Below are positions 5,817 through 29,107 of a stretch of DNA of 35,446 nt, in pieces. Made by a program: the position numbers and the translations under genes. The notes under the pieces were generated by a model. It ran no database searches and was not told the DNA's origin. It was given only the letters and a program-made list of their open reading frames with translations. The stretch is taken from positions 1 through 35,446 of the forward strand of contig CAZBKL010000002.1 in assembly GCA_964492465.1 (NCBI GenBank). The letters run 5' to 3'. The first letter of the stretch is position 1; each line of letters begins with the position of its first letter. This DNA is from an uncultured archaeon. GTDB taxonomy: Archaea; Aenigmatarchaeota; Aenigmatarchaeia; GW2011-AR5; JAHLMP01.

Positions 5817-5835
5817 TTTTTTTTGTTTTATTTTT

Positions 5836-5860: not shown

Positions 5861-6009
5861 AGAAAGAAATCCGCAAAGAAACATCCACCTTTAGATGGAA
5901 GTATCGTTGGAATTTCATTTTTTATTTTGGCTTGCAGCAATGATATTCTAAATTATCCCAAATTACAAAACATTTAATCAAACCTTTTATTATCCTGATG
6001 ACAATTATT

Positions 6010-6120: not shown

Positions 6121-6141
6121 ATGTATTGAAAGAGTGATGCA

Positions 6142-6297
6142 ATGGCTGAGAAAAAAGCATTCGGCGGATATGGCATATGCTTTGCTGGACAGACTGCCAC
6201 AATGGAGGAAGTTTTCGGCAAGGAGTCTATAGCTCCCAGTTTGATGACAAAAAAGCTCTGGGAATTTGTCAAGTCCAAAAATCTTGGAAAGAAGTAA
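6142..6297 (+). CDS. Small basic protein (51 aa), paralog B; not in the ORF track (below its length cutoff)
   Basis: My translation: MAEKKAFGGYGICFAGQTATMEEVFGKESIAPSLMTKKLWEFVKSKNLGKK, then a stop at 6295-6297. It aligns end to end with 5640..5816. ORF 6066..6278(-) in the track is its antisense shadow. Confidence 0.5.
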   Translation: MAEKKAFGGYGICFAGQTATMEEVFGKESIAPSLMTKKLWEFVKSKNLGKK

Positions 6298-6344
6298 GTT
6301 CTTTGATTTTTTTATTTTTTGATATTATTTTTGTTTTTCTAGTT

Positions 6345-7046: not shown

Positions 7047-7069
7047 GAAACGTGTATTCCAGAAAAATT

Positions 7070-8317
7070 TTAAATTTCAATCTCGTCCCCGTTTTTCGGG
7101 GCAAAAGCAGGTATCTTGAATTCACGTTCAATATCCCTTGCAAACTGCTGGCATTTGTCGCCGTGAACGCATATTACTTGCTCTGGCCTGAGCTTCCTGA
7201 TTATATCCAGAAGCTCGCCCCTGCCAGCATGCGATGAGAAGTCAAAGCGGGTTATGCGACAGCGGACAGCAAATTCCTCGTTCTCGTTTTTGTATATGTT
7301 TGTGTCAAGCAGATGCTTGCCCGGGCTGCCTTCCACCTGGAAGCCGACAATGATTACTTTGGAGTCCCGCCTGTTCTGGATTTTTCTTAAATAGTAAGCG
7401 ACTGGTCCACCTGAGAGCATTCCGGAGGTGGTGACTATTATGGAAGGCTTTTTCAAAGCTGCCTCGCGCTGCTTCTCATTATCAATTTTCCTGATTTTCC
7501 TGAAAATATTTTTCAGCTCATCGCTGTTTCTTATGCACTTGCTGTTTTTCAGTATTATTTTTGTGGCCTCTTTTGCCATTCCGTCAAGGGCCATATAATT
7601 TTCATATCCTTTCAGGTTAAGCAGAATCTCCTGGGCTCTGCCAACTGCAAAAACCGGTATGATAACGTGCTCGTTCATGTTCAGCGCTTCGTCTATTTCG
7701 CTTCGAAAAAGAGCATCCCTGTTATGAACATCAGGATGGTTGCGGTCGCTGTAGGTGCTCTCAATTATCAGCGTGTTGACTTTCTCCTTGGGCAGCCTGC
7801 AGCCTGAAACCAGCTTCTGCGCGCTTAGCTTTGTATCGCCTGTATAGAATATGTTTTTTTTGCCTGAGCTGAGCAGCACTCCGGCAGAGCCTGGTATATG
7901 GCCAGCATCAAAGAGCCTAAGGCTGGCGTCTTTTACAGAAAACGGCTTTTCGCATTTCACCGGCTTGATGCTGTTCATGATCTTCCTCGCATCCTCTTTT
8001 GAGAAGTGCTGCGGATACTGGTTGATTCTGGCTATTTTCAGGAAATCATTTATCAGAAGCTCTGACATTTCTGCTGTTGCGCTGGTTGTAAAAACAGGCG
8101 CCTTGTGCCTAGCAAGAACAGGGACTGCGCCGCAATGGTCAAGGTGGGAATGGGTCGGGATTATTGCATCAACCTTGTCAGGAACCAGCGGAAACTCCCC
8201 TGGCGCAGGCTCTATTTTCACGCCATAGTCCATGATTATGGAAGCATTTTTAGTATGAACCTGAATAGCAGACCTTCCGACTTCCTGGCCTCCACCGAGT
8301 ATTCTTATTTTCATCAT
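7070..8317 (-). CDS. Beta-CASP metallo-beta-lactamase RNase (aCPSF2-like, no KH domains)
   Basis: 415 aa. Motifs THSHLDHCGAVP (HxHxDH), FDAGHIPGS, ESTYSDRNHP, FSSHAGRGEL and VHGD are present. Confidence 0.85.
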   Translation of the reverse strand: MMKIRILGGGQEVGRSAIQVHTKNASIIMDYGVKIEPAPGEFPLVPDKVDAIIPTHSHLDHCGAVPVLARHKAPVFTTSATAEMSELLINDFLKIARINQYPQHFSKEDARKIMNSIKPVKCEKPFSVKDASLRLFDAGHIPGSAGVLLSSGKKNIFYTGDTKLSAQKLVSGCRLPKEKVNTLIIESTYSDRNHPDVHNRDALFRSEIDEALNMNEHVIIPVFAVGRAQEILLNLKGYENYMALDGMAKEATKIILKNSKCIRNSDELKNIFRKIRKIDNEKQREAALKKPSIIVTTSGMLSGGPVAYYLRKIQNRRDSKVIIVGFQVEGSPGKHLLDTNIYKNENEEFAVRCRITRFDFSSHAGRGELLDIIRKLRPEQVICVHGDKCQQFARDIEREFKIPAFAPKNGDEIEI

Positions 8318-11855: not shown

Positions 11856-14800
11856 TTATTTTTTCCCTGTTCCATGGCTGCTGCTCAGCATGATTATATT
11901 TTTATTTACCTGTCCCAGTCTTTCCCTGTGCTTTTTCAACACCAGTACATACTCGCTTTTTGGCATCTCCCTGAGCAGAAAATACCTCTTCTGAATGTTC
12001 TTTACCTGATATTCTATATTTGCTTTCTCCTCCCTTAGCTTTGCGATTTTTTTGTTTCTTCTCTCGATTTCAGTCAGCTTATATACCATGAGAAGCGAGA
12101 TCGCTGCTACGCCCAAGATTGCTGCAATGCCCTCCCAATTCTGCCTTAATGCCAATATAATATTGTCTTTTTCTGATGCCTCTACTGTCTTCTTAATAAG
12201 CAACGCATTTTCTGCCTCGTCCAATGCATTTATGGATTTTTGGAAATAATCTTCCGCATCTTCGTATATTTCCGAAATGAAAGCTTCCAGACCTCTCTTG
12301 AAAAGCTCATCTGCAGGTGTGGTATTTACGCCTCTTTTTTCAGAATCCTGCATCTTTCCCTCAACCACATCTATGAGCTGGTTTGCAGACACAGCAGCAT
12401 CCTTTATGGTTTTCACATAAAGGGCAAGGGAAACTGCATTCAGGTACCTTCCCTGATACATCATAAGTTTCGCATCAGTGAGAGTGTCATTCATCCTTTT
12501 TATCCCGAAGCCGGATGCCTGTGCTTCCTTTATCAGAGATTCGGCCACGATGATTGCGTCTTTTGCGTGCTGCTCATCTGCGGCAGATGTTTGATTCATT
12601 GCCAGATTAGAAGCTGCATAAGCAGGCGCTGTTAGGGAAATGAGGAAAAAAACCAGCATAAGCGAAAGCCATATCTTCCTGCTGCCATTCTGCGGCTTCT
12701 TTTCTGTTTCTGCGAGCTCTTTCCTGAGCTCGTTCATGGTATTCCTGTAAATCTTTTTGCTGATTGCCCTGCGCTCATAATAGTTTCTCTGCGCCTCCTC
12801 TATCATGCTGATTATGCTGGCTCTCTTTCTCTCGTTGCTGAAAACGGAAAATCCAAAAAATCCCTTTCTCACAGGCTCAAGAGAAGCCTGCTCCTTCTTT
12901 ATCATTGCAAGCCTTTTCTCATACATTTTCCCCTCGTCTTCGAATTCAGACTTTCCTATTGTTCTGGACTGGAAAAACCTGCTTTGCAGCGATTTCAGAA
13001 GCGATGTTATTATCATTTCCTCGTTTTTCAGGGATATCAACTTTTTGATTCTCTTTCTGACCGCGACATGCCTATAGATTAATATTATAGACGCAACTGC
13101 GACAGCAAAAATAACAGCAGCAATTTTCCAGTTTTTTTCTATTGCTTCTGCTACAACAATCTGGTTGCCGACTTCTAAGCCGTACGCAAGAAAAGCTCCC
13201 GAAGCCCGTTCTTCAGCTCTTTTATAGTCGCCCCGCGCAAATGCCGAGAGCGCAAGTTCATGCAGCTTCTCGGTTTCGTTGGTTGATATTTTATAGATGG
13301 CTGCCTTATCCAGCTTTTGAGAAACTTCTTTTATCAGGGAGTCGGCAGCAAATGCCTGCTCCTGTATTTCAATTATTTTTTCAGCCAGTTCCTTTGCCGT
13401 GTCATAATCAAAATCTGCCATGCTCGCCCTTGTCTGGTTCGCAAGGTTCTCCACATTTTTCACATCCATGCCCAGGGTTTTCATCTTTTCTATCCCATAT
13501 TTGGCAGCTGAGACGAGGCTTGTTGTCTGGTTCTCATCAACGCTGTGAACAAAGACTGTTATTGTTGAGATGGCTCTTACTGTTGTCTCGTTTTCCTCAT
13601 AATTCAGGCGCTTTGCTTTGCCTGCTGCCTGGAGCGATAAATTATACGGCCCGTATTTCATGTATTGCGGGATTGCGAGCTCTATATGGAAACTTTTATC
13701 ATATCCAAAAGAAATGTTTTTCAAAATGATTGGAGTTATTTTTATCTGGCTGGGCGGGTAGCCGGATATGAGGAGCTCTACGCTGTTCATAATTGTTTTG
13801 TTCTCTGTGTTGCGCACAAGAACATCAAAATAGATTGTTCTGTTCCTGTAGCCATCAACGCGGGGCTTGTTCGATAATGAAAAAGCATATTTTTGCTGGG
13901 GTGCCTGAAATCCAACGTACGCCGGCACAGAGCTGGGTGAGCTTCCGCTTTGGGGCGCGGAACATTCTGCATCGTTTGCATAATTGCAGCCGTTGCCGCA
14001 AGCGCCGTCACCGCTTACGCAATTGACAAGAATATCCTGGCATTTTGTATGGTTGCCGTTCTCGTCCCTGCTCACGTTTATGCACACCGAGGCGACGCCA
14101 CTTGCAGCTGAGCTGCCGACAATCATGGTGATGTTGCTTGTGTTTGATACAAGCGGGCTCATGTCACCGAAATCCTGACTGAGCCCTCCTGATGTGTTGA
14201 GCCAGCCAGGAGGAAAGCTCCAGTTGAGCATGACGTTGTGCGCAGTCTCGTTTCCGATATTTCTTATAGTAACAGACATGTTCACGCCTGCCTGGCTGTG
14301 GCTGACCTGGGAAGGCATGCTGTCTATTATTATGTCAATGAAAGGGCCGCCGGTGTATGTATTCATAATGATAGAAGTGACTGCTGAGAGGGGCGAAGCT
14401 GTCTTTGAAGGATTTGTTGGCTGGGCTGATATGTTGATTGCCATTATGCCTGAGCTGTCATAACTCGCGAACTGGGCTGTTATATTCACATCCCTGCTCA
14501 TCTTTGCCGGAACATCAAACGGGTTGGTTGTATTATATGAATACAACCTCGGCCAGTTGTTCAGCAGGGTTATCGCAAGAGTTCCGTCGCCGGTATTGTT
14601 TATTGAAAGCACCCCCACATAGCTTTCGTTGTTGAAGTATCCCTGGGCTGTGGTGTTGGAAATGTTTGCCGTCCATGTATAATCCCAGGTTGAATTGAAG
14701 CTTGCTGATTGGCTTGTGTTATAATGGCTTTGCGTGTCATTGGCAAATATCCGGTAGTAATATATCCTCTCGGGGTCTGTGGTGTTTATTGTTGTGAAAG

Positions 14801-16091
14801 ACGCATTCCATGTGTCGCTGCTGGTGTTTGACATTGTAAGATTAACCCAGTCCACGTCATACTTGTACTGGAATGTCACATTGCTTATGTTGGAAATGCT
14901 TGTTATGTTTGCTGTCACATTTAATGTGACGCCAGGGTCAATGTCATCTGGTGAATTCGGGGAAAATTGTATCCAGTTCACTCTTGGCGGAGACGATACA
15001 TCCTGAAACAGGCTGAAATTGTTCCCGCCCCATGACTGGGACTCATTATCCTGTGCGAGACAGTTCCATTTATAAATCCCATCAGGAACGTTTGCCAGCG
15101 AGAAATTTGCAGAAACATTCCTATGGTCTGCGCTGCCCTCTGCCCAGGCAGAGCTTATTTCTGCCTCGCTCCTGTGCCTATTTGACATTCTCAGCTCATC
15201 GAAGACTGAATTTGAATGGTACTCCCCGTTTGCATCGCTTCCCAGGAACAGGTATTGCCCAAAGTATTCTGTTGCTAATTCACCGGGAAAATAATTTGAG
15301 CTTGATGATATGTTCGACCCGTCTATGAAAACATTTGTCCCGAGTTCATTGTCCTGCTGGCTGGAGTACCACATGGCTGATATAAAATGCCATTCTCCCA
15401 TGTTCCAGCTTGATATACCTGATAATGATATGGTTTCGTATACGCTGTCGTCACTAAGCCTGAGCATAAACCTGAAATAAAGGATATTGCTGCTGGAATA
15501 CATATCTATGTTCGAAGCTACTGTTCCGGTGTCAAAAAGCCAGTAAACGTTGGCAGATGCCGGGTCAAACCCCACCTTGATCCAGAACTCACTGGAACCG
15601 TTGGCTGAGAGGATGCCTGAAGTATTGTATTTCAATGTGCCCGGACTGCTTACTGCTACACCCTGCAAAGACTTTCCCTGCTCAAAGGATGTGGAATCAT
15701 TTATGCCTGTTCCGCCGTCGCATGCATAGGTGTTGTCAAAATGGCATAGCAGCGTTGTGCTTGAATCTTTCTCAATGCCTGTAAGCCTTTTTGTCCAGTT
15801 CAGGGAGAAATTTCCGCTTATATCATTATAAAACGAGACTGCGGAAATGTTGTTCTCCGAGGATGCATTGCAGTAAAATGCCACAACGCTCTGGTTTGAC
15901 AGGCTCGCATTTTGCGGGCTGGTCAGGTTTACAGCGGGCGCAGCCATTGCAACTGGTAAAAATAAAATAAGGAACAGCAAAAGGTATTTCACTTTCGCTT
16001 CAATGCACAGACTCTTTAAGCCTGTGATTAATATGCTCAGTTGAAGCGAAAGGGATACACCACCCTTCGGGGTGGTGAGATTCACTGGCAT
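11856..16091 (-). CDS. Giant (1411 aa) sequon-rich surface protein: signal peptide, LamG domain, CARDB-like beta domains, Cys-knot motif, then two copies of a helical stalk + TM + cytoplasmic module
   Basis: Likely signal peptide (V)KYLLLFLILFLPVAMA-AP at aa 34-50; a GTG at 15992 is an alternative start. LamG signature NSVFDELRMSNRHRSEAEI near aa 295-312. CARDB-like MSVTIRNIGNETAHNVMLNWSFPPGW. CVSGDGACGNGCNYANDAEC. TM segments at aa ~988-1006, ~1139-1158 and ~1319-1337. Confidence 0.85.
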   Translation of the reverse strand: MPVNLTTPKGGVSLSLQLSILITGLKSLCIEAKVKYLLLFLILFLPVAMAAPAVNLTSPQNASLSNQSVVAFYCNASSENNISAVSFYNDISGNFSLNWTKRLTGIEKDSSTTLLCHFDNTYACDGGTGINDSTSFEQGKSLQGVAVSSPGTLKYNTSGILSANGSSEFWIKVGFDPASANVYWLFDTGTVASNIDMYSSSNILYFRFMLRLSDDSVYETISLSGISSWNMGEWHFISAMWYSSQQDNELGTNVFIDGSNISSSSNYFPGELATEYFGQYLFLGSDANGEYHSNSVFDELRMSNRHRSEAEISSAWAEGSADHRNVSANFSLANVPDGIYKWNCLAQDNESQSWGGNNFSLFQDVSSPPRVNWIQFSPNSPDDIDPGVTLNVTANITSISNISNVTFQYKYDVDWVNLTMSNTSSDTWNASFTTINTTDPERIYYYRIFANDTQSHYNTSQSASFNSTWDYTWTANISNTTAQGYFNNESYVGVLSINNTGDGTLAITLLNNWPRLYSYNTTNPFDVPAKMSRDVNITAQFASYDSSGIMAINISAQPTNPSKTASPLSAVTSIIMNTYTGGPFIDIIIDSMPSQVSHSQAGVNMSVTIRNIGNETAHNVMLNWSFPPGWLNTSGGLSQDFGDMSPLVSNTSNITMIVGSSAASGVASVCINVSRDENGNHTKCQDILVNCVSGDGACGNGCNYANDAECSAPQSGSSPSSVPAYVGFQAPQQKYAFSLSNKPRVDGYRNRTIYFDVLVRNTENKTIMNSVELLISGYPPSQIKITPIILKNISFGYDKSFHIELAIPQYMKYGPYNLSLQAAGKAKRLNYEENETTVRAISTITVFVHSVDENQTTSLVSAAKYGIEKMKTLGMDVKNVENLANQTRASMADFDYDTAKELAEKIIEIQEQAFAADSLIKEVSQKLDKAAIYKISTNETEKLHELALSAFARGDYKRAEERASGAFLAYGLEVGNQIVVAEAIEKNWKIAAVIFAVAVASIILIYRHVAVRKRIKKLISLKNEEMIITSLLKSLQSRFFQSRTIGKSEFEDEGKMYEKRLAMIKKEQASLEPVRKGFFGFSVFSNERKRASIISMIEEAQRNYYERRAISKKIYRNTMNELRKELAETEKKPQNGSRKIWLSLMLVFFLISLTAPAYAASNLAMNQTSAADEQHAKDAIIVAESLIKEAQASGFGIKRMNDTLTDAKLMMYQGRYLNAVSLALYVKTIKDAAVSANQLIDVVEGKMQDSEKRGVNTTPADELFKRGLEAFISEIYEDAEDYFQKSINALDEAENALLIKKTVEASEKDNIILALRQNWEGIAAILGVAAISLLMVYKLTEIERRNKKIAKLREEKANIEYQVKNIQKRYFLLREMPKSEYVLVLKKHRERLGQVNKNIIMLSSSHGTGKK
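16058..16077. other. Perfect 8-bp GC-rich hairpin CACCACCC-TTCG-GGGTGGTG (cUUCGg loop on the + strand)
   Basis: Read directly. It lies inside the first 12 codons of the maximal giant ORF and upstream of the alternative GTG start at 15992. Confidence 0.5.
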
Positions 16092-16126: not shown

Positions 16127-16172
16127 TGTATAAACATATTGTATAAACATTTAGCTTATTTTGTATAAACAT
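16127..16172 (-). promoter_or_regulatory. Three direct copies of an 11-mer (TGTATAAACAT on +, ATGTTTATACA on -) upstream of the giant surface-protein gene
   Basis: Exact copies at 16127-16137, 16140-16150 and 16162-16172. The sense-strand core TTTATA is TATA-box-like. Confidence 0.5.
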
Positions 16173-16205: not shown

Positions 16206-17114
16206 TTATTCGGTTTTGCCGAATACCTCCTGCTCAGGGAAGACCTCCATACCTTTCTTGGAAGTTATTCTCATGGCAACCACTTTCTTAATGTGCTTTG
16301 CGCCGCGCATCTTCAGTACCTCAATTGCGCTCTCACGAATGTTGCCTGTCCTTTTATTGTAGAGAACTATAACGCCGTCAGCCAAGAATTCCTCAACGCC
16401 TGTCGGGCTAAATACGTCCGGAAACTGTGAAGTTTCAGTGATCAGGAACGATGTTACGCCCAAGCTTTCAAAATACCTGAAAAGGTGCTCTATGTAACTC
16501 CTGTAGCTTTCCCTACCCGAGAATGCTGATGCCACAGCAGTCAGTGAGTCAACAATGATTATATCAGGTGTGAAATTTTTAGGCAACAATATTGGGTTTA
16601 CGTCAATAAGAAGCTCGCCCTGAGACTTTGCCATCATCGCCTCAAGGGTCCTGCCTATGTCGAAAATGCTGAATCTCTTTATAACCAGCCTGCTGCTCAT
16701 ATTGTCTGTTTTCCACCCAAAATCTCTCATATGCTCCCTGAGCCGCTCCTCAGATTCCTCAAAGGTCATGTAAAGGCAGTTCTTACCCTTTTTTACGGCA
16801 TTGAGTATCATTTGCAGGCACATTATGGTCTTACCAGAGCCTGCGCCGCCAGAAATAAGTACAGAAGCTCCTTTTGGAATACCCTTTTCAAAAAGCTTGT
16901 CAAACCCTTCTATGCCCGTGAGAAGGTATTCACGCGGTTTTTCAGTGGCAGAAGCGCTGCTTTTTATTTTTTTCACGTTGTGCGACGATGCCAAAGCCTT
17001 TTCCTTGATATTGCTTTTTTCCCGCCTTTTGGTTCCCTGGCTCTTTTTTTGGGTTTTCTTTGGGTTATTGACAGGGTGCTTCTTCAGCGCCTTTGGCATA
17101 TATGTCATTATCAA
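16206..17114 (-). CDS. KaiC/RadA-like single-domain RecA-superfamily ATPase with a basic N-terminal extension
   Basis: 302 aa. TGIEGFDKLFEKGIPKGASVLISGGAGSGKTIMCLQ (Walker A) and IIIVDSLT (Walker B). The first ~55 aa are K/S-rich. The track start is a TTG; the first ATG is at 17108. Confidence 0.85.
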   Translation of the reverse strand: MIMTYMPKALKKHPVNNPKKTQKKSQGTKRREKSNIKEKALASSHNVKKIKSSASATEKPREYLLTGIEGFDKLFEKGIPKGASVLISGGAGSGKTIMCLQMILNAVKKGKNCLYMTFEESEERLREHMRDFGWKTDNMSSRLVIKRFSIFDIGRTLEAMMAKSQGELLIDVNPILLPKNFTPDIIIVDSLTAVASAFSGRESYRSYIEHLFRYFESLGVTSFLITETSQFPDVFSPTGVEEFLADGVIVLYNKRTGNIRESAIEVLKMRGAKHIKKVVAMRITSKKGMEVFPEQEVFGKTE

Positions 17115-17197
17115 TCTGGGCGTATATAAATCATGCTAAAATTGTGCAATTGTTTAAACATAATGCTTATCAACCCAAAAAGACAATAATTAATTGT

Positions 17198-17722
17198 ATG
17201 AATATGGAGCAGACAATAAAAGGAAATAAAATCCTGCTGTTTGTGGTATCAAACAAAAATTATATAAAAAACATAAATGAAATAGCTTATGGCGTTTCAA
17301 ATGTGAGCAGGAGCATAGTTTATGTTACCCTCAACAAGCCTTACAAAGTGCTTGTAGAATCCTTTGAAAAAAAGGGCATTAATGCGAAAAAAATGGCATT
17401 CATTGACTGTGCCAGCGGAAGCATCCAAAAGCCCAAGGACTATGATGTATTGTTTGTCTCTTCTCCGGAGGCCCTCACGGAATTGAGCATAACAATAAAC
17501 GAGACTATGAAAAAATCCACAAACATCATAATCTTTGATTCGGTATCCACACTCCTTGTGTACAAGGAGCCATCAATTGTCGTCAAATTCATCCACTCCA
17601 TGATATCCAAGATAAGGGCTGCTGACAAGAAATGCGTGATGATATCGCTGTCAGAGGATGCAAATAAAACAGTGCTGAAGGATATAGGGATGTTTATAGA
17701 CAAAATGGTTGTGCTGAAATAG
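17198..17722 (+). CDS. P-loop-less RecA/KaiC-fold protein (DUF835-like), paralog 1
   Basis: From ATG 17198, which avoids overlap with the divergent KaiC gene. It has a beta-alpha pattern like KaiC, but the Walker A position reads LLFVVSNKNYIK. Walker-B-like IIIFDSVSTLLVY. Motifs shared with 18293..18847: LNKPY, FxD, SPxxLxEL, FDxxSTLLxY, KFxHxMxS. Confidence 0.6.
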   Translation: MNMEQTIKGNKILLFVVSNKNYIKNINEIAYGVSNVSRSIVYVTLNKPYKVLVESFEKKGINAKKMAFIDCASGSIQKPKDYDVLFVSSPEALTELSITINETMKKSTNIIIFDSVSTLLVYKEPSIVVKFIHSMISKIRAADKKCVMISLSEDANKTVLKDIGMFIDKMVVLK

Positions 17723-17772
17723 CATTGGGGTATTAAAAAACCTTTATTAACCAGACTGATTATTATTAAATA

Positions 17773-18123
17773 ATGAGCTGTCCGTTATTTGTCGATTTTA
17801 CAAGAGAGTGTATAAAAGAAGTGGAATTCACTCCCACAGACACAACGGAATTCTGTGCAACAGAAAAATATGTTGACTGCCCTTTTTATAGACTATTGAT
17901 AAAAAAAGGGGATGTATGCAAAAATATCGGCAAATGCCCGGCATTCAAGAACTTTCAGGTTGGGGACTTCAACAAGTTTGTGGAAATCTCAAACAGGTTT
18001 TGCACATCTAAAAACCATGTGAGTTGTAAGAGATATATCACCAAAGAGAGCGGGCAGCCTGTGCCAATCAGCCTTCACCCGGACGGGAGCTTTGTTAAGG
18101 AGTGGGAAAACAAGCAGAGCTGA
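17773..18123 (+). CDS. Cys-rich small protein (8 Cys, 116 aa), function unknown
   Basis: MSCPLFVDFTRECIKE...FCATEKYVDCPFY...DVCKNIGKCPAF...RFCTSKNHVSCKRY. Spacings are C-x9-C, C-x7-C, C-x5-C and C-x7-C, which suggests metal or Fe-S binding. Confidence 0.5.
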   Translation: MSCPLFVDFTRECIKEVEFTPTDTTEFCATEKYVDCPFYRLLIKKGDVCKNIGKCPAFKNFQVGDFNKFVEISNRFCTSKNHVSCKRYITKESGQPVPISLHPDGSFVKEWENKQS

Positions 18124-18196
18124 CAATAGAACATACCCTGAAATAGACAGCAAAATGTAGATTTTTCAATGCTAAGCGGAATTCTGTTCTGAAAGC

Positions 18197-18218
18197 ACAT
18201 GTTTATACAAAAACATGT
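18197..18218 (+). promoter_or_regulatory. Inverted repeat ACATGTT-(8 nt)-AACATGT containing the 11-mer ATGTTTATACA, upstream of 18293..18847
   Basis: Read directly. The 11-mer at 18199-18209 is identical to the sense-strand repeat upstream of the giant gene. A TATA-like TTTTTTATATAGG follows near 18235-18247. Confidence 0.45.
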
Positions 18219-18292
18219 TAAATATAACTGTATTTGTTTTTTATATAGGGCACGTTTAATTAAAGTATGGATTTAAACAAAGGCGAGGGGGA

Positions 18293-18847
18293 ATGATTTC
18301 TGATATTCTGCACGAAATAACAACAAACAAGTTTCTGATAATTCTGATGAATGAGAACGAGTACACGAACAAGCTGAAGGAAATAGTTGAATCTGTGGAC
18401 AAGGACAACACCAGAATATGCTATGTATGCCTGAACAAGCCATACAGCTATGTTGTGGAAGACCTGAAATCAAGGGGTGTTGACACAAAAAACTTCTTTT
18501 TCCTGGACATACTGACTTCGCACTATGGAAAGCCGGAGCCTGCTGATAACTGTGTTTTTCTTGAATCCCCGTTAAATCTGGACGAACTCAAGAAGGCTGT
18601 GGATGGCATAGTCAGGGACAGTGGCTGTGAGGTAATACTTTTTGACACATTTTCCACGCTTCTCATATACCACAGGTCTTTCTCATTGATGAAATTCGCC
18701 CATAACATGAAAAGTGAAAAGCTGCAGGAGGAAACAAGGAAGCTCTTTATAGTGCTCAAGGAAGATATGCTTTCTGCAAACGAGGGGGGCTTTGCGAAGG
18801 ACCTTGAGATGTTTGCTGACAAGAATATAGAAATTTCATGCAAATAG
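18293..18847 (+). CDS. P-loop-less RecA/KaiC-fold protein (DUF835-like), paralog 2
   Basis: 184 aa. The Walker A position reads FLIILMNENEYT. VILFDTFSTLLIY is Walker-B-like. It aligns along its full length with 17198..17722. Confidence 0.6.
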   Translation: MISDILHEITTNKFLIILMNENEYTNKLKEIVESVDKDNTRICYVCLNKPYSYVVEDLKSRGVDTKNFFFLDILTSHYGKPEPADNCVFLESPLNLDELKKAVDGIVRDSGCEVILFDTFSTLLIYHRSFSLMKFAHNMKSEKLQEETRKLFIVLKEDMLSANEGGFAKDLEMFADKNIEISCK

Positions 18848-18921
18848 GGCCTTATGGCGCATGATGTGGAAAACGCGTGAATTCTGAAAGATTTAAATAA
18901 ATTGCTTTGAAGTATAAACTA

Positions 18922-19236
18922 ATGGCAGAGTTGTTAAATATAGACTTTAAAATGAAAAAAATTCTGGTCACGCTTGAGCTGTCGGCAGACGAGCACCAGA
19001 ATATAAAGCATCATAGGGAAATGCTGGTTGCGCCGACCAGCTCTTTTACAGATGTGCTGACTACCGGCACTCTCGGAAACAGCAACAGGATAATGCTTCC
19101 GAACAAGATACTTAAAAAAAACGATATTGCCAGGCTCAGGAAAAAGGTTCCCTGCTCTGTTTTAAAAATTAAAAAAGGGAGGTATCTTGTGATTGAGCTG
19201 GAAGGACCAAGCGCTGAGATACCTGAATTTAGATAA
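18922..19236 (+). CDS. AbrB/SpoVT-like small DNA-binding protein (tentative)
   Basis: NSNRIMLPNKILKKNDIARLRKKVPCSVLKIKKGRYLVIELEG resembles the swapped-hairpin AbrB motif (xxIPkeiRkklgi). The start is uncertain: TTG 18907, ATG 18922 or ATG 18952. Confidence 0.4.
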   Translation: MAELLNIDFKMKKILVTLELSADEHQNIKHHREMLVAPTSSFTDVLTTGTLGNSNRIMLPNKILKKNDIARLRKKVPCSVLKIKKGRYLVIELEGPSAEIPEFR

Positions 19237-19267
19237 ATAACCGGTTTTTTCATATTGATGTGGTGCT

Positions 19268-19945
19268 ATGAGGATAACAACAGGTCTTGAGAGATTGGAT
19301 GAGCTGATAGAAGGGGGCTTCCCTGAAAAGACTGCCATTCTGCTATCGGGCGGGCCAGGCGCAGGCAAAACCCTCATGGGCCTTAATTTTCTGATAGAGG
19401 GCGCGAAAAATGGTGAGAAATGCTGCTACCTTTCCCTGACAGAAAGCGAGGAAGAGCTGAAACGCGCTATTGACAGCATAGAATCCCTCAGGGCAGCAAA
19501 CGATTTTCTGGACAAGAATCTCATTCTCAAATGCATGGAGATCGGCGACGAGCTTTGCAATAATGTTGACTATTTCATAAAAACCATATCCACTTACCCG
19601 AAGCTCGACAGGATAGTGGTTGACAACATAAACAAGCTGCTTATATTTGCAGATACCAGAAAAAGCTACCGCATTAACGTGGTAAAATTAATAAAGCACC
19701 TTAAGGAGAAAGCAAACTGCTCCCTGGTTTTATGCGAGACTGAGGGGGATGTAGTGGACACCAAGAACGGGGAAGCATTTGAGTGCGACGGGGTAATTCA
19801 TCTGTCTTTCCTGGAGCTGGAGGAGAAACCTATGCGCACAATAAGAATCCAGAAGCTAAGGTACACAGACTTTGAGCCGCATGTTTCCAGGGAAATAATA
19901 ATCAACAAGAAATGCATCCGTATGGGACCGACCAAAGTAATATGA
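19268..19945 (+). CDS. KaiC/RadA-like single-domain RecA-superfamily ATPase
   Basis: 225 aa. TTGLERLDELIEGGFPEKTAILLSGGPGAGKTLMGLNF (Walker A), RIVVDNINKL (Walker B), and a KaiC-like C-terminus IRIQKLRYTDFE. Confidence 0.85.
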   Translation: MRITTGLERLDELIEGGFPEKTAILLSGGPGAGKTLMGLNFLIEGAKNGEKCCYLSLTESEEELKRAIDSIESLRAANDFLDKNLILKCMEIGDELCNNVDYFIKTISTYPKLDRIVVDNINKLLIFADTRKSYRINVVKLIKHLKEKANCSLVLCETEGDVVDTKNGEAFECDGVIHLSFLELEEKPMRTIRIQKLRYTDFEPHVSREIIINKKCIRMGPTKVI

Positions 19946-20005
19946 CGTGCGGCCGCCGGCAACAAATAAATTTCATTTATATTCTGCCCTTTTCTCTTAA
20001 TAGTT

Positions 20006-21019
20006 ATGAGAATGTCTGAGTCGCTGCGGAGAGGCACAATAGATGCAGTTACGGGGGTAATACTAAATCGGTTTAAAATAAAGAGCAGAAGAAATATGCT
20101 GTTTTTTGAGGACATACTTGCAAATTATGTAAAGACATGCGAACAAAACGGAAAGGGCGTTGAGATCAAGAAAATCAATCAAAAATGGGCCATATTATGC
20201 ATATCCCAGCTTATCCCACCTGTTCTCATAAGAATTCTTCCTGTTTCTATTTTGGCCCAAAGAATAAAGGGCGTATGGATTAATCTTGGTCTCGTTGAGG
20301 ATTTCAAAGTCGAAAAAAACGAAGATATAATAACCATCGTGACGAAAAATGAGTTCGTAACCAGGATTGTAAAAAACAATGTCTACATGTCGGGGGCATA
20401 TGAAGGTATCATAAATGAGGTTTTTGGGCTCGGTGCAATATGCATAGAAATTTCCCAAGACAAGAATATTAGTAAATACGTCTTCAAATTATCGGGTTCT
20501 CCTCCTGTTGTCAGGGGAAAGTATAAAAAAACTTACGATGCGCTGAACTCTTTTAAGTTTTTCGGGGGTTTTGGGCTCAAAGATGCGCTAAAATCCGGAA
20601 TTTTTCAATTAAGGAGTGATAATAGAATTTATTTCAGGGGAAAGTCCATAATTCCGATTGAAAATACGGTTTTTCATATATTCAGCAACCAAGGAATATT
20701 TTTAGAGGAGGTGCCAAAAATATCATTCGATTATTTCAGTAAATTGATAGAAATGGGCTCTTCAAACGAGCAAAAATTATCATTGCTTAAAAAACTGCTT
20801 CAGGCAATGGGCTGGGGTTCTATTAAGATGTCATTAAACGGACATAAAAATATTGCTATGGAGATTGCAAACCCACCATATGGATTGCAGACGGAACCCG
20901 ATAATTGGAGATTTTTGTCAATGGTTATTTTGGGATATTTCTGGTTATTAGATAATAGATTTGGAATTGATAATATTTATGAGAAACGCAATACCTTATT
21001 TATTTCATATGGCTGCTGA
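20006..21019 (+). CDS. Hypothetical protein with two V4R-like (4-vinyl-reductase / small-molecule-binding) halves (tentative)
   Basis: 337 aa. ITIVTKNEFVTRIVKNNVYMSGAYEGIINEVFGLGAICIEISQDKNISKYVFKL and LLQAMGWGSIKMSLNGHKNIAMEIANPPYG...LSMVILGYFWLL both resemble the V4R pattern, but they lack its usual Cys residues. Confidence 0.5.
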   Translation: MRMSESLRRGTIDAVTGVILNRFKIKSRRNMLFFEDILANYVKTCEQNGKGVEIKKINQKWAILCISQLIPPVLIRILPVSILAQRIKGVWINLGLVEDFKVEKNEDIITIVTKNEFVTRIVKNNVYMSGAYEGIINEVFGLGAICIEISQDKNISKYVFKLSGSPPVVRGKYKKTYDALNSFKFFGGFGLKDALKSGIFQLRSDNRIYFRGKSIIPIENTVFHIFSNQGIFLEEVPKISFDYFSKLIEMGSSNEQKLSLLKKLLQAMGWGSIKMSLNGHKNIAMEIANPPYGLQTEPDNWRFLSMVILGYFWLLDNRFGIDNIYEKRNTLFISYGC

Positions 21020-22042
21020 ACAAATATAATCAATTTCATTTCCTTCAGTTCTTCTCGCAAAGCAACCGGAAAGACATGTTTTAAATTTGCAGTATTTACA
21101 CTGGTCTGAAAATGTCAATTTTTCCTTATGCTCATTCAGCCTCTTTGAGTGGGTATTAATAAGTTTTCCATCTATCTGCAGGATATTATACATGGGTGTT
21201 CTGTCCATAGCACAGAAATAGACATCACCTTTGACTGATATCGTTGTGTAAAGACCAGCCAGCGCCACGCAATAACCCCCAGTTACGCTGAGGGCGGTCT
21301 GGAAATCGAGCGGATAGAGCGGGTCGCCAGATTCCACATTTACAGCTCCTGTCTCCTCTGCAAATCTTGTCAGCTTTTTGAGGGTCTCGATATAATCAGT
21401 CGGCAAAATGCTCATTTGCTCCTTTGCCCGCCCGGCGGGGGTCATGTCCCAAACACGGCACCGCTCCACTCCCAGCGAGCGGGCGAAATTGAATATTTCA
21501 AAAATTTCGCCCTCGTTTTCCTTTGTGAGAACAGTTTGTGATGTGCAAACGATGCCGGCGTCCTGTGCATTCTTCATGGCTTGCACAGACTTTTCAAAGG
21601 AGCCTTCGCGCCCTCTTATCTGGTCGTGCTTCCCCGGCTCTATGCTGTCTATGTTAATCTGGACCTGCGAAAGGCCGATTTCCTTCATCTCCTGCGCAAG
21701 CTCTCTTGTAAGCAGCCAACCGTTTGTATTCATGTGCACTATAAAACCGCGGTCGCTCGCCTCTTTTACAGCTTCCCTTATGTACGGATGCACAAGCGGC
21801 TCCCCGCCTGAAAAAGTCACCTGCATGACCCCTCCGCTTTTCAGTGTGTCAAGAATTTTTTTAACATTGTCCAGGCTCATGTGCTCGCCATTCTGGGTTG
21901 AGCTTGCATAGCACCATTTGCAGTTCAGGTTGCATGCTTCTGTAATCTCGAGCACGACCCATGACAGCGACCTGTTCCTGTCAAAATTCCTGAATTTCTC
22001 CCCCGCGTCCGTATGCTTCCAGCCGAATGTCACCACGCACAT
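21005..22042 (-). CDS. Radical SAM enzyme with a C-terminal SPASM/twitch-type auxiliary cluster domain
   Basis: 345 aa. LEITEACNLNCKWCY (CxxxCxxC), FSGGEPL, NTNG, and a C-terminal CKYCKFKTCLSGC. Confidence 0.85.
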   Translation of the reverse strand: MCVVTFGWKHTDAGEKFRNFDRNRSLSWVVLEITEACNLNCKWCYASSTQNGEHMSLDNVKKILDTLKSGGVMQVTFSGGEPLVHPYIREAVKEASDRGFIVHMNTNGWLLTRELAQEMKEIGLSQVQINIDSIEPGKHDQIRGREGSFEKSVQAMKNAQDAGIVCTSQTVLTKENEGEIFEIFNFARSLGVERCRVWDMTPAGRAKEQMSILPTDYIETLKKLTRFAEETGAVNVESGDPLYPLDFQTALSVTGGYCVALAGLYTTISVKGDVYFCAMDRTPMYNILQIDGKLINTHSKRLNEHKEKLTFSDQCKYCKFKTCLSGCFARRTEGNEIDYICSAAI

Positions 22043-22069
22043 CCCAAATAACCCGCAAATACGCTTATC

Positions 22070-22849
22070 TTACAGCAAAAACAGCCACAAATCAAGAAAA
22101 GCAAAAGACATCATGCCAAAACTATGCGCAAAGCCAAAATTGTTTCTGATAAGCTCAATAAGCACTATAAAATTGCATACGAGGATTATGCATAACCTGC
22201 TGAAGTCAAATGCTGCGAGCATACCTGTCAGAAAAATCAGGGCATAAATCATTTTTTTAATTTTGGCTGGCCCGAAAATCACCGGCAGGGTATTTATGCC
22301 CGCATCTTTGTCGCCCTCATAATCCCTCAAATCCGACAAAATGCTTCCTGCGAGGATGAACAAATAAAACTCAGTATAATAAAACAAAGTCCCTGCATCA
22401 ATATAGCCGTATCCCACAAGAAACAGCTGCGATATCAAAAAAGCTGTGTACAAATTTTTTATCAAAGGATGTTTTTTAATTCTGAAATGAGAGTAGGCGA
22501 TACCAGTGACAATAAACGTGAGTATGAAAAAAGCTGAATAGAAAGTGAGCGAAAACGAAAGCATGATGCTGGTAAGTGCGCAGCATGAGACAACTGCCAA
22601 ACCGAGTTTTTTATTCAAAACAAGCCTGTTCAGACTACCCCTGTTTTTCAGGTCCTCCTCTTTGTCCGTTATATTGTTGTATGAGTAAACAGCTGCGCAT
22701 GCAAAAAAGGAGCATGCCAGCACGAAAGCCGCAGAAATGCCGTGCGCTGACAGCAGTATTCCCGCAAGAGCCAGGAGAGAGGCTGAGATGCATATCCTAA
22801 CCCTGATAAAATTCAGGAATTCCATGACCATTTCTGCAACCAGGACCAT
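22070..22849 (-). CDS. UbiA-superfamily prenyltransferase, paralog 2
   Basis: 259 aa, about 8 TM helices. First Asp-rich motif NNITDKEEDL, second motif DLRDYEGDKDAGINTLP. Confidence 0.75.
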   Translation of the reverse strand: MVLVAEMVMEFLNFIRVRICISASLLALAGILLSAHGISAAFVLACSFFACAAVYSYNNITDKEEDLKNRGSLNRLVLNKKLGLAVVSCCALTSIMLSFSLTFYSAFFILTFIVTGIAYSHFRIKKHPLIKNLYTAFLISQLFLVGYGYIDAGTLFYYTEFYLFILAGSILSDLRDYEGDKDAGINTLPVIFGPAKIKKMIYALIFLTGMLAAFDFSRLCIILVCNFIVLIELIRNNFGFAHSFGMMSFAFLDLWLFLL

Positions 22850-23656
22850 TCATAAACCACTCATAACATAAATATATGGCGTGAGAAATTCCACAAGCAC
22901 AATCCTTCCGCGAACTTTCCTGGTTATTGTCCTGTTATGAATTTTTTTCAGGTTCAGTATTTTTGCAGAAAGGTTGATTACCCACGGGACTGCCATTGCA
23001 GGCGAATATATCAACCCGCCAAATGAAACCAGCGAAACCGCAGCTGCTGTTATGCAAATCATCCATGCCATTTTCAATTTGTTCGCAAGAAAGAGGTTTG
23101 TATCATCCTTTTTGTCAGTAGAATCCTTTTGGCATCCGATGTACAGGTATTGAGACATGCAAAAAACCGTTAGAGAAATTATGGGCAGGCTCATACTCTC
23201 CATAAAAAAATAATTCAGCGAAATAATTGTTACAAGCCAGGTGGTGGTCGCGAGCAGATAACACTTGATATGATACTTCTTAAGCCGTACCCTTTTGTTG
23301 GAGTAGGCAAAAAGCAAAACGGCATAATAAATTCCTGCGGCTAGCAGAACATTGCTGAATGAAGAAAGAATTAACAGGCCGAATAACAGGGATAAAAATG
23401 AGAGATTCCTCATTCCTTTTGGGGTCATAAATTTATTTACAGACAGCTTGTCATGCCTGGCATTCCTTACATCTTCATGATAATCACAGAAGTCATTGTA
23501 GATGTCGCCGAACAGGTGGACCAGAAAAAAGCCAGTGGCAATTAGGAGCAGGCTGGCACTTATATTTGAAGTCAGTGCGCCGTACATCAATATAAATCCA
23601 AACGTGAGTCCCATCCCTGGACGGACCCTTTTATATATTAAATATGGAAGTTTCAA
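22850..23656 (-). CDS. UbiA-superfamily prenyltransferase, paralog 1 (divergent)
   Basis: 268 aa, polytopic. YNDFCDYHEDVRN (NDxxDxxxD) and a second acidic patch QKDSTDKKDD. The track start is a TTG overlapping the upstream stop; ATG 23614 is an alternative. Confidence 0.7.
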   Translation of the reverse strand: MKLPYLIYKRVRPGMGLTFGFILMYGALTSNISASLLLIATGFFLVHLFGDIYNDFCDYHEDVRNARHDKLSVNKFMTPKGMRNLSFLSLLFGLLILSSFSNVLLAAGIYYAVLLFAYSNKRVRLKKYHIKCYLLATTTWLVTIISLNYFFMESMSLPIISLTVFCMSQYLYIGCQKDSTDKKDDTNLFLANKLKMAWMICITAAAVSLVSFGGLIYSPAMAVPWVINLSAKILNLKKIHNRTITRKVRGRIVLVEFLTPYIYVMSGL

Positions 23657-24783
23657 ATCACCATCCCCTGCTTATGCATACTGCTGCATAATCGCAACAC
23701 CTCTTCCTCGGAGAAAGCTCTCTTCTGCTGCTCTGACTCGCTCTTTATATGCTTCAGGAAGCCATCCAAGCTGTTCTCTGATAAGTGCACGTCAGTCTTT
23801 TCCAGTACATGCTTCAGGGCATTTTTTCCACTGTGCTTGCCGAACCTGAACTTTCGCCTGCATCCTATAAGTTCTGGTTCAAATGGCTCGAAGGTCAAAG
23901 GATGCTTTAATACAGCATCTGAATGTATGCCAGACTCATGAGAGAATATATTGCTTCCGATAATGGGCTTGTGTGGGTGTATCCTTACGCCAGAATATTT
24001 CTCAACGAGGTCGCATATTTCCTTTATTAATCCGTATCTGACATTCATTTCCATGTTTTCGAGGCATTTTAGAGCGACGCAAACTTCCTCTATTGGCGCA
24101 TTGCCTGCGCGTTCCCCTATTCCTGTAAAAGTTCCAGAAAACGCATCAGCCCCGGCTTTAATGCCTGAAATGGTATTGGCAGTTGCCATGGAAAAATCAT
24201 TATGAACGTGCATGCCGATTCTGCATCTGGTCTCTTTCTTGATGCTGGAAACAAATCCCGCAACTTCCGAAGGCCTAAGGTGCCCTACTGTGTCAGCGAT
24301 GTAAAAAATATCTATGGAATCTTCAATGCTCTTCATGAACTTCAGGAGATATGTATAATCTGCTCTTGTTGAGTCCATGCCGGCAAAGCTTATTTTCAGT
24401 CCAAGCCTGTTGGCGTATTTCACTGACTCTATTGCCCTTCTGAGGTTTGTTCTCCTGTCGTTTCCGAATTTTGGGCCGAGAAAAATGTCAGAGACTGGTG
24501 CAAAAAGGGTTATTTTTTTAATACCAAGGCTCTTAACCTGATTGATATCATCCTTTCTCATACGGCAGGTTGCAGAAATCTTGTCATGATATCTTTCTGC
24601 CAGCTCTTTTGCCAAGCGTGCCTCTGAATCAGAAACAGCAGGCATTATGTCAATCTCATCAACGCCAAATTCAACGAATTTTTCAGCCAACTCAATCTTT
24701 TCCTCGCTCGTGAACACTATGTCAGGCATCTGTTCACCGTCGCGCAAAGTCGTGTCGTGTATGTATATTTTTGTCAGGGGCAT
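23653..24783 (-). CDS. Homocitrate/2-isopropylmalate/citramalate synthase family enzyme (HMGL-like DRE-TIM, no LeuA regulatory domain)
   Basis: 376 aa. IHDTTLRDGEQMP, HVHNDFSMATANTISGIKAGA and GIGERAGNAPIEEV are present. Confidence 0.85.
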   Translation of the reverse strand: MPLTKIYIHDTTLRDGEQMPDIVFTSEEKIELAEKFVEFGVDEIDIMPAVSDSEARLAKELAERYHDKISATCRMRKDDINQVKSLGIKKITLFAPVSDIFLGPKFGNDRRTNLRRAIESVKYANRLGLKISFAGMDSTRADYTYLLKFMKSIEDSIDIFYIADTVGHLRPSEVAGFVSSIKKETRCRIGMHVHNDFSMATANTISGIKAGADAFSGTFTGIGERAGNAPIEEVCVALKCLENMEMNVRYGLIKEICDLVEKYSGVRIHPHKPIIGSNIFSHESGIHSDAVLKHPLTFEPFEPELIGCRRKFRFGKHSGKNALKHVLEKTDVHLSENSLDGFLKHIKSESEQQKRAFSEEEVLRLCSSMHKQGMVI

Positions 24784-24993: not shown

Positions 24994-25362
24994 ATGAAAA
25001 AGAAGCTTATTATGATTGTTGACGACGAAGAGAACATCCGTGAGTTTCTTACTGTCATTCTGGAAAAGGAAAATTTTGATGTGGTAACTGCTTCTGACGG
25101 GCAAGACTGCCTTAATAAGCTTAAGACCATAAAGCCAGACCTGATACTTCTTGATATGATGATGCCCGTGATGTCTGGGAGGGAGGTTGCTGAGAAAATA
25201 AGGAAGAGCCCTGATACAAAAAACCTCAAGATAGCATTTGTCACAGTTGCGCGATTTTCTGAGCTTGGAAAAGACACGCTTTCCAAACTGAATGTTTTGG
25301 ATTACATAACAAAGCCTTTTGACAACGAGAAACTTATAGAAAGGGTGAAGAAGCTGGCTTAG
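24994..25362 (+). CDS. Stand-alone CheY-like response regulator receiver
   Basis: 122 aa. IMIVDDEENI, LILLDMMMPVMSG (phospho-Asp context), and KIAFVTV with a downstream K. Confidence 0.9.
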   Translation: MKKKLIMIVDDEENIREFLTVILEKENFDVVTASDGQDCLNKLKTIKPDLILLDMMMPVMSGREVAEKIRKSPDTKNLKIAFVTVARFSELGKDTLSKLNVLDYITKPFDNEKLIERVKKLA

Positions 25363-27707: not shown

Positions 27708-28208
27708 TCACTTATTTTTGCTTTCCATCTCTTCGGCCCTCTTTTTCATCTCAGCCATCTTCAGTTCCCTGCCGACTGCAAGCTTCCTGAACTTCTCAAG
27801 TTCCACGACCTTTGATTCCAGTTCCTTCTTGAGCTTTTCCAAGTCATTTGTCCGCTCTCTTACGGCTGACTCTATTTCGTCACTTCTTTTTTTCAAATCC
27901 TCGGTAGCTTTTTTGCTCTCATGTATCTTCCTGATGCTTGAAAGCGACAGCGAAACGACCAGAAATACATATATGGCCCCAAAGCAGTATATCGCACTTA
28001 TCATAAGCTTGTCATCAAGCTGTATGTTTGAGATTTCAACAAATATTTGAAATATATAACCTACAAAAAAGAAGAGCGTGAGCAGGGACAAAATTATCCA
28101 GTATTTTTTCGTGCTCCCCTCCTCAGTGATTTTTATAATGCCCATGTACTTGAAGAAGGATAAAATAAAAACTGCCGCCCCAATTCCGATTAAAATTACA
28201 TTTATCAT
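27708..28208 (-). CDS. Small membrane protein (about 4 TM) ending in a signalling-type coiled coil with no output domain
   Basis: 166 aa. The C-terminus is ...VRERTNDLEKLKKELESKVVELEKFRKLAVGRELKMAEMKKRAEEMESKNK. Its start overlaps the upstream gene by 4 nt, and its stop is 4 nt from the HK start. Confidence 0.6.
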   Translation of the reverse strand: MINVILIGIGAAVFILSFFKYMGIIKITEEGSTKKYWIILSLLTLFFFVGYIFQIFVEISNIQLDDKLMISAIYCFGAIYVFLVVSLSLSSIRKIHESKKATEDLKKRSDEIESAVRERTNDLEKLKKELESKVVELEKFRKLAVGRELKMAEMKKRAEEMESKNK

Positions 28209-29107
28209 TTTTTAACACCTTTCTCCAGCTCTTCGATCCTCTTCTTCAGCTCAATCATTTTCAGTTCCCTGCCCACGGAAAGCTTTGTAAACTTCTCGAG
28301 TTCAACAACCTTGCCTTTAAGCATCTCTTCCATTTTTTTACTGTCCTCGATGTCCATTACCATTCCTGAGAGTATGTCTCCGTCGATGGTGGCGCTTATC
28401 ACGACATTTTTTACCTCCCCGTTTTTTGTGATAAACTCAGTCTCAAAACTGCTTACCTTCCCGTTTTTTTTCAATTCTTCCAGGAATCTTGCCCTGTCGG
28501 CCGGGTTTTTGTATATCGAGACGACTTCTTTGTTTTTCATCTCATCATAATTTTCAAATCCGAGCAATTTTGCCAGTGCGTCATTGGTAAAAAGGAACTT
28601 TCCGTCCGCAGTCGTTTTGTAAATGCCGATAAGGGAATTGTCAACAAGTCCCCTGTACTTCTTCTCTGATTTTGCCACTTCTTCTTCTGCCTTCTTCCGT
28701 TTGGTTATGTCATGGGAAATCCCTATCATCGAAGTCACTTCGCCGGAACTGTTTTTTACAGGAGAAAGCCTGATTTCGACCCAATAATCTTCGCCCGAAG
28801 TTTCGTGTATCTCGCTATATAACGGCTCGCCTTTCTCAAAGACTTTTTCTATGCCATTCTGGAGAAATTTCAGGCTTTCCTGCGGGAATATGTTCTTGAT
28901 GTCTATGCAGACATTTGCGTCTTTTTTCAGCTTGAATCCCTTGGCAGCCGCAGAATTGACAAACGTGATGCATCTGCTCTTGTCAATCAGGTATATTTTG
29001 TCTGTTATCGATTCAGCCAGCGTCCTGTAAAGCTCCTCGCTCTTTTTGATTTTTTCCTCGCCATTTTTTTGTTCTGTAATATCTCTTGCGCTAATCATGG
29101 TGTTCAT
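28205..29107 (-). CDS. Cytoplasmic tandem PAS/PAC sensor protein ending in the same coiled-coil motif, with no output domain
   Basis: 300 aa. Two PAS/PAC units (SEELYRTLAESITDKIYLID..., ISHDITKRKKAEEEV..., EKKYRGLVDNSLIGIY...). The C-terminus is KGKVVELEKFTKLSVGRELKMIELKKRIEELEKGVKK. Confidence 0.8.
   Translation of the reverse strand: MNTMISARDITEQKNGEEKIKKSEELYRTLAESITDKIYLIDKSRCITFVNSAAAKGFKLKKDANVCIDIKNIFPQESLKFLQNGIEKVFEKGEPLYSEIHETSGEDYWVEIRLSPVKNSSGEVTSMIGISHDITKRKKAEEEVAKSEKKYRGLVDNSLIGIYKTTADGKFLFTNDALAKLLGFENYDEMKNKEVVSIYKNPADRARFLEELKKNGKVSSFETEFITKNGEVKNVVISATIDGDILSGMVMDIEDSKKMEEMLKGKVVELEKFTKLSVGRELKMIELKKRIEELEKGVKK

Follow-up and report, generated by a model that had tools for sequence, protein, structure and literature searches.

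Inactivated KaiC (iKaiC) domains have been described in archaeal signalling (Makarova, Galperin and Koonin, 2017, as cited in Galperin et al., 2018, PMC5847659), and REC-DUF835, iKaiC-REC and MEDS-REC proteins are listed as archaeal response regulators that contain them (PMC5847659). The majority of archaeal response regulators consist of a bare receiver (REC), and for one such class a census of archaeal two-component systems notes a complete lack of experimental study and unknown interaction partners (PMC5847659). Here we analyze two open reading frames (ORFs), A and B, in a stretch of 35,446 nucleotides from an uncultured archaeon of the Aenigmatarchaeota (GenBank assembly GCA_964492465.1, contig CAZBKL010000002.1, positions 1 to 35,446; hereafter the window). 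Comparison of their sequences and gene contexts with those of related loci leads us to regard A and B, with a probability of roughly 0.6, as non-enzymatic iKaiC adaptor or output modules of phosphorelay signalling.

Like the catalogued iKaiC domains (DUF835, MEDS and those of the iKaiC-REC/REC-DUF835 proteins), A and B combine a predicted KaiC/RecA fold with the loss of the ATPase motifs and are coupled, genomically or physically, to receivers, kinases and KaiC ATPases. Unlike the catalogued fusions, they are stand-alone proteins of about 175 amino acids, whose family is encoded beside REC rather than fused to it and occurs mainly in DPANN archaea, whereas the fusions come from Methanomicrobia, Thermoplasmata, Methanosarcinaceae and Nitrososphaera-type archaea (PMC5847659). 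They also differ from DUF835 and MEDS themselves, as A and B score 23.0 and 22.6 bits against Pfam DUF835 (PF05763), both under its gathering cut-off of 33.1, and neither matches Pfam MEDS (PF14417) at E ≤ 1. Protein A is placed just above the cut-off of Pfam KaiC (PF06745; 28.0 bits, cut-off 26.6) and marginally above that of DUF7504 (PF24336; 27.8 bits, cut-off 27). Protein B stays below threshold for KaiC as it does for DUF835, and has no match to DUF7504 in Pfam even at E ≤ 1. Among 69 sampled members of the family, Pfam matches at E ≤ 1e-3 were to DUF7504 (62 members), KaiC (44), DUF7090 (38) and DUF835 (18). DUF7504 and DUF7090 (PF23365) are the best-matching named families, both archaeal and with no function attached; the scores of the A/B family lie at the edge of these models, and none of the papers searched mentions either. 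As a discovery the family is modest, since descriptions of iKaiC domains in archaeal signalling go back to 2017–2018 and the family borders existing Pfam domains of unknown function; of use are two specifics, the conserved division of labour between A and B in an Aenigmatarchaeota-centred clade and the rearranged locus of the window.

The frames of both ORFs are open at the following coordinates of the window:

17198..17722, forward strand: iKaiC-A (ORF A), 174 amino acids, predicted KaiC fold without Walker A, the catalytic Glu pair and the C-terminal Lys/Arg region (a second possible start is the ATG at 17204)
18293..18847, forward strand: iKaiC-B (ORF B), 184 amino acids, paralogue of A in a separate, well-supported clade

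The first-pass annotation of this DNA, made from the letters alone, had described A and B as full-length paralogues of RecA fold whose Walker A loop is replaced and whose Walker-B-like strand still ends in Asp, and these parts of it were borne out. BLASTP aligns the two proteins over nearly their full length (171 columns, 33% identity, 53% positives, E = 1e-27), and every motif listed in that annotation is visible in the alignment, namely LNKPY, FID/FLD, SPEALTEL/SPLNLDEL, IIFDSVSTLLVY/ILFDTFSTLLIY, KFIHSMIS/KFAHNMKS and MFIDK/MFADK. They are the sole copies of the family in the assembly (792 kb, around 87% complete), the best relatives of which are Aenigmatarchaeota genomes. A sequence-only search of the PDB gave weak matches (KaiC, E = 0.007; FlaH, E = 0.02), and a fold search was therefore needed. 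The AlphaFold2 (AF2) model of A, built from the 69-sequence alignment, consists of alternating strands and helices with a predicted local distance difference test (pLDDT) score of 92.6 and a predicted template modelling (pTM) score of 0.90. Its top Foldseek matches in the PDB, at a probability of 1.00, were KaiC-type ATPases and not a non-P-loop fold: PH0284 (2dr3, template modelling score TMq 0.73–0.76), cyanobacterial KaiC and FlaH/ArlH. On the strength of this model and of the resemblance of B to A, both proteins belong to the RecA/KaiC-fold superfamily. The closest solved folds, the single-domain archaeal KaiC-like ATPases PH0284 and FlaH/ArlH (4yds), were matched at TMq 0.67–0.76 and have the strand order and the Walker B Asp of A and B. 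PH0284 and FlaH have a P-loop, 4yds being FlaH with ATP and Mg; in A and B, not only the P-loop but also the catalytic Glu pair and both terminal elements (N-terminal segment and C-terminal Lys/Arg region) are missing.

To locate the lost and retained motifs, 26 active KaiC genes from the window and related loci were aligned and their profile was compared with that of the A/B family (probability 68%, E = 5e-5). Reading the P-loop register from the secondary structure of the model together with the profile register, we infer that A has a strand at residues 12–17, a four-residue loop S-N-K-N (S18–N21) and a helix from residue 22 where KaiC has its P-loop, and that B has N-E-N-E there, in agreement with the proposed replacement of Walker A by VVSNKNY and ILMNENEY. 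The KaiC P-loop consists of seven residues (GGAGSGK); the iKaiC loop is three residues shorter and free of glycine, and an invariant Tyr22 lies at about the position of the Walker A Ser/Thr. The catalytic Glu pair has not been kept either, TLNKP standing opposite TFEES of the neighbouring KaiC1, with Asn46-Lys47 in place of Glu-Glu; N46 and K47 are conserved in 99% and 94% of the family, respectively, and among the KaiC sequences E119 hardly varies. The Walker B Asp is retained (IIFDS opposite IIVDS), the invariant D114 matching D189 of KaiC1, which is itself invariant in the KaiC set, and the EFLADG motif of KaiC survives as MFIDK in A. Protein A stops at residue 174, just past the strand that matches KaiC1 246–252, and neither A nor B has a counterpart of K268/R270, invariant in the KaiC set, or of the roughly 25 residues that precede strand 1 in KaiC. 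K268/R270 belong to the trans-acting arginine-finger region of KaiC. With the P-loop, the Glu pair, the N-terminal segment and the Lys/Arg region all lost, A and B cannot bind or hydrolyse ATP in the manner of KaiC.

Nor did a nucleotide-binding loop turn up elsewhere in the sequence. The 69-member family alignment contains no conserved glycine-rich loop, a single column reaching 40% Gly, and the pattern [AG]x4GK[ST] matches 3 of the 69 members sporadically, in the α1–β2 linker and not at the P-loop position; a cryptic loop was rejected on these grounds. A GxxxxGK[ST] Walker A is also missing from all 109 family copies in the 81 loci that had a family match (the window and 80 fetched loci). 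Conservation is instead concentrated in polar residues (Y22, N46, K47, D70, S88, S89, P90, D114 and S115, all nearly invariant) that are placed at the C-terminal ends of the strands in the model. They appear to surround the former nucleotide site, a placement that speaks for a functional surface put to new use and against decay.

The family to which A and B belong is large. A single-sequence search retrieved 13 relatives, a word-indexed profile search 611 matches, and an exhaustive profile search of cluster representatives 3053 matches at E ≤ 1e-3, of which 480 at E ≤ 1e-30. By one peptide pattern, relatives were found in the genomes of 225 species, mostly DPANN, with the Aenigmat-, Alti-, Iain-, Woese-, Pace-, Nano- and Undinarchaeota as the main phyla and a few metagenome-assembled genomes of Methanosarcinales, Hadesarchaea or Methanobacteriota. 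These proteins are annotated in their sources as hypothetical, as 'KaiC/GvpD/RAD55 family RecA-like ATPase' or as 'FlaH'. Fifteen columns are invariant in a 14-member family set that includes A and B. The family also contains fusions (CheC-iKaiC, CBS-CBS-iKaiC and iKaiC followed by two C-terminal transmembrane helices) and long forms, which are Lys/Glu-rich proteins of 500–850 amino acids with predicted coiled-coil regions, one of them in the complete AR10 genome (examples of fusions and long forms are proteins P0189, P0180, P0238, P0167 and P0127, and locus L080 at 5050–7428). In Woesearchaeota-type genomes (G003, G004, G008, G011, G015, G016 and G017), several short matches of iKaiC type to the KaiC model (model positions ~41–190) carry one to three in-frame TAG/TAA codons; these may be pseudogenes, matches that cross gene borders or something else.

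We then examined the genomic context of the family in the 81 loci, in which ORFs were clustered without prior labels, cluster representatives were checked by Pfam and neighbours were counted within two genes. A stand-alone REC was the most common neighbour (32 of the 81 loci), followed by a KaiC with Walker A (27), a HAMP-HisKA-HATPase kinase (25), a multi-PAS protein (14) and a CheC-like protein (9). Any two-component gene was present in 46 loci and either KaiC or a two-component gene in 67, the two kinds of neighbour coinciding in only six. The fusion proteins described above confirm this association with signalling. Gene order varies with lineage. The order REC-REC-iKaiC-histidine kinase is found in whole clades of Woese- and Nanoarchaeia-type genomes, with no KaiC nearby; CheC followed by iKaiC characterizes another clade; KaiC is followed by two iKaiC genes in Altiarchaeota and by one in Iainarchaeota, where stop and start codons often overlap. 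These KaiC-iKaiC operons have spacings of 0–4 bp or overlaps (for example, L021, L035 and L039).

Within this family, A and B represent an old pair. In the phylogenetic tree, B falls in a 7-member clade (support 1.0) and A in a separate 24-member clade (support 0.71). The best relatives of A are the first copies in related, mostly Aenigmatarchaeota, loci (57–64% identity) and those of B are the second copies (48–50%). Both types occur in six related loci besides the window, and a B-type gene (39–54% identity) was detected in 11 of 16 further genomes of the A clade, on the same contig as A and 6–18 kb from it in 8 of the 11, so that at least 18 related genomes, most of them from Aenigmatarchaeota, have the two types together. 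Judged from these sequences, A and B are anciently diverged clades and not a local duplication. The first-pass annotation had read them as a duplicated sensor cassette flanking the Cys-rich gene between them; this does not hold, given the age and spread of the two types and the absence of the Cys-rich gene from all 81 related loci.

The two clades also keep different company. A co-directional REC gene directly follows B in 12 of 17 evaluable cases and lies within two genes in two more. Of 24 genes of the A clade, 12 have a PAS or kinase gene after them and 7 stand beside KaiC, divergently or directly downstream of it; in four of these seven, the KaiC gene is in turn followed by a giant LamG gene. 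We also noted a ParA/MinD-like P-loop ATPase (272 amino acids) that is encoded upstream of A-type iKaiC, at a distance of one to a few genes, in several of the related, mostly Aenigmatarchaeota, loci (L022, L023 and L024, ~3.7–5.8 kb).

In the window, A and B are accompanied by the following genes:

11856..16091, reverse strand: giant LamG-domain surface protein, downstream of KaiC1, with which it forms a conserved unit that diverges from iKaiC-A
16206..17114, reverse strand: KaiC1, active-type single-domain KaiC (GGAGSGKT), divergent from iKaiC-A, a pairing that recurs in related loci
17773..18123, forward strand: Cys-rich protein of 116 amino acids with 8 invariant Cys and a C-terminal LHPDG motif, between A and B
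18907..21019, forward strand: 109-amino-acid protein, KaiC2 and 337-amino-acid protein, three genes in a row, part of the ~6-kb separation of B from REC
24994..25362, forward strand: stand-alone REC, 72.5% identical to the REC directly after iKaiC-B in L003
25445..27703, reverse strand: sensor histidine kinase (dCache-HAMP-HisKA-HATPase_c), orthologue of the L003 kinase
28205..29107, reverse strand: PAS-PAS protein without a kinase domain, from the family of PAS genes that follow A-type iKaiC elsewhere

The closest locus, L003, serves for comparison. There, the giant and KaiC genes on one strand diverge from A, B and REC, which follow each other directly on the other, and the kinase and PAS genes converge on REC. 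Identities between the window and L003 amount to 46% for the LamG giant, 74% for KaiC1, 57% for A, 38% for B and 46% for the kinase. The window thus corresponds to the L003 backbone with two insertions, the Cys-rich gene between A and B and ~6 kb (18907–24783) between B and REC. The latter contains, besides the three genes listed, a radical S-adenosylmethionine (SAM)/UbiA/UbiA/HMGL-like block. The trio of 109-amino-acid protein, KaiC2 and 337-amino-acid protein recurs in L010 (7449–9624) and in L011 (736–4802), where, as in the window, UbiA and radical-SAM genes are interspersed. Neither the 109- nor the 337-amino-acid protein has a match in Pfam, NCBIfam or PADLOC. PADLOC defence models likewise returned no match for A, B or the Cys-rich protein and gave weak generic P-loop matches for both KaiCs; a defence-island reading was rejected, A and B having no such match. 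The divergent pair of KaiC1 and A is kept in L003, L012, L015 and L030, and a LamG surface protein of ~1400 amino acids is encoded beside KaiC and iKaiC-A in several related genomes (L003, L015, L030 and L008).

Taken together, A and B belong to a large family of stand-alone iKaiC proteins, found mostly in DPANN archaea, within which they diverged long ago and would have taken on different tasks. The B-type protein would pair with a CheY-like receiver encoded on its own, in effect a split-gene form of the archaeal REC-iKaiC response regulators, and in the window the orthologous receiver would have been shifted 6 kb from B by the inserted cassette. The A-type protein would act together with the PAS/histidine-kinase branch and the divergent unit of KaiC1 ATPase and giant LamG surface protein, and the remodelled crevice at the former nucleotide site is likely a surface for binding a partner or ligand. 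Stand-alone dead-KaiC proteins are a concrete and very common candidate partner for bare receivers, with two specialized paralogues, one tied to the receiver and the other to sensor kinases and a real KaiC ATPase. Small soluble proteins thereby become a direct means of testing whether bacterial-type two-component systems are linked, as proposed, to the archaeal KaiC 'hub'.

Several observations weigh against this adaptor reading. In the window itself, A and B are not adjacent to REC, PAS or kinase genes, which lie 6–10 kb away; KaiC1 and KaiC2 alone are close to them, and the link to two-component signalling is taken from orthologous loci. All 26 iKaiC genomes tested have full KaiC genes, hence a KaiC-dependent and a KaiC-independent role cannot be separated on this basis; the question of whether iKaiC genomes lack KaiC proved an uninformative one, as the 14 control genomes all matched the model too. 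The profile-profile match is a modest one that leaves the first 27 residues uncovered, where the P-loop register follows the secondary structure of the model, and the positions of the conserved residues around the old active site were read from strand topology rather than from coordinates. A and B may also bind nucleotide in some non-canonical way.

The first-pass annotation had expected catalytically dead subunits that oligomerize with KaiC rings or regulate them. Its link to KaiC remains plausible in view of the conserved KaiC1/A pair and the KaiC-iKaiC operons; a place in the ring fits less well with the predominance of two-component genes near the family (46 versus 27 of 81 loci for KaiC) and with the missing N- and C-terminal parts of KaiC. 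In its stronger form, A and B would sit in mixed rings with KaiC1 or KaiC2 and tune the ATPase/autophosphorylation cycle, and we consider this unlikely, though the strongest of the alternatives. The fold core of A and B is that of KaiC, every iKaiC genome tested has a KaiC, the divergent KaiC1/A pair is conserved in four loci, and tight operons of the kind seen in Altiarchaeota and Iainarchaeota are typical for subunits of one complex. Against this, neither A nor B has the N-terminal segment or the C-terminal Lys/Arg region of KaiC, so that an adaptor role is more likely than regular membership of a KaiC ring: without the arginine-finger region around K268/R270, the active site of a neighbouring subunit could not be completed. 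Moreover, KaiC is the rarer neighbour and coincides with two-component genes in just six loci, and whole clades with the order REC-REC-iKaiC-histidine kinase have no KaiC nearby. Elongator Elp4/5/6 and other motif-less RecA-like paralogues use a RecA-like fold as a non-catalytic, multi-paralogue scaffold. A and a few family members have weak Pfam matches to Elong_Iki1 or PAXNEB, far below threshold, but the biological context differs from that of Elp4/5/6 and A and B are not known to form a ring, the likeness being one of analogy.

A sensory role is more doubtful still. MEDS has been described as an inactivated-KaiC sensory domain (PMC5847659), and if A and B resembled it, the former nucleotide pocket would bind a metabolite or second messenger and signal to kinases or KaiC. 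The clustering of invariant polar residues at the C-terminal strand ends, at the old ligand site, would suit such a sensor, as would the CBS-pair fusions and the neighbouring sensor proteins without a kinase domain. Yet neither A nor B matches Pfam MEDS, the gene context yields no candidate ligand, and both the CheC fusions and the strict adjacency of B to REC point to protein partners. It is highly improbable that A and B are remains of KaiC genes in decay that serve no function. Their catalytic motifs are lost and B evolves fast, with 38% identity to its L003 orthologue against 74% for KaiC1, but neither frame is broken, the 14-member set has 15 invariant columns, thousands of members across phyla all lack the P-loop, and both clades are conserved together with their gene contexts.

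The adaptor reading is thus preferred, and an 11-mer in the window hints at how the genes might be controlled. With one mismatch allowed, ATGTTTATACA occurs seven times in the window, against 0.6 occurrences expected. Three tandem copies precede the giant LamG gene (16127–16172), another copy (17690–17700) is contained in the 3′ end of A and precedes the Cys-rich gene, and a seventh (31570–31580, one mismatch) is far from the module. The remaining two are located as follows:

17151..17161, reverse strand: near-palindromic TATA-like motif ATGTTTAAACA, a one-mismatch copy of the 11-mer in the 83-bp spacer between KaiC1 and iKaiC-A
18199..18209, forward strand: exact 11-mer ATGTTTATACA, ~85 bp upstream of the start of iKaiC-B

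At 18198–18217, the 11-mer lies within the palindrome CATGTTTATACAAAAACATG. Within the window, this distribution suggests that the genes bearing the 11-mer are under common regulation. It is conceivable, if a long shot, that the A/B pair forms a pseudo-ATPase adaptor, possibly a hetero-oligomer resembling Elp4/5/6, that conveys the phosphorylation state of the receiver via B and through A to KaiC1 and so controls the LamG protein, with the 11-mer marking one regulon. An episymbiotic Aenigmatarchaeota cell would thereby gain a sensory switch for attachment to its host.

The Cys-rich gene is a lineage-specific insertion outside the conserved module. Its protein, for which the AF2 model was poor (pLDDT 60.4), is from a small family and has 13 homologues of 37–62% identity. 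No iKaiC was called among the neighbours in the three homologue contexts looked up (L087, L088 and L089; 52–62% identity), and a 189-amino-acid gene beside the homologue in L087 did not match the hidden Markov model of the iKaiC family. A duplicated cassette around the Cys-rich gene was rejected, as the gene is neither in the 81 related loci nor with iKaiC in these contexts. In L089, the same gene order follows glycosyltransferase genes. Two of the three contexts are Patescibacteria-type contigs, at least one (L088) carrying a Patescibacteria label, and the distribution of the Cys-rich family suggests transfer between DPANN archaea and bacteria of the candidate phyla radiation (CPR).

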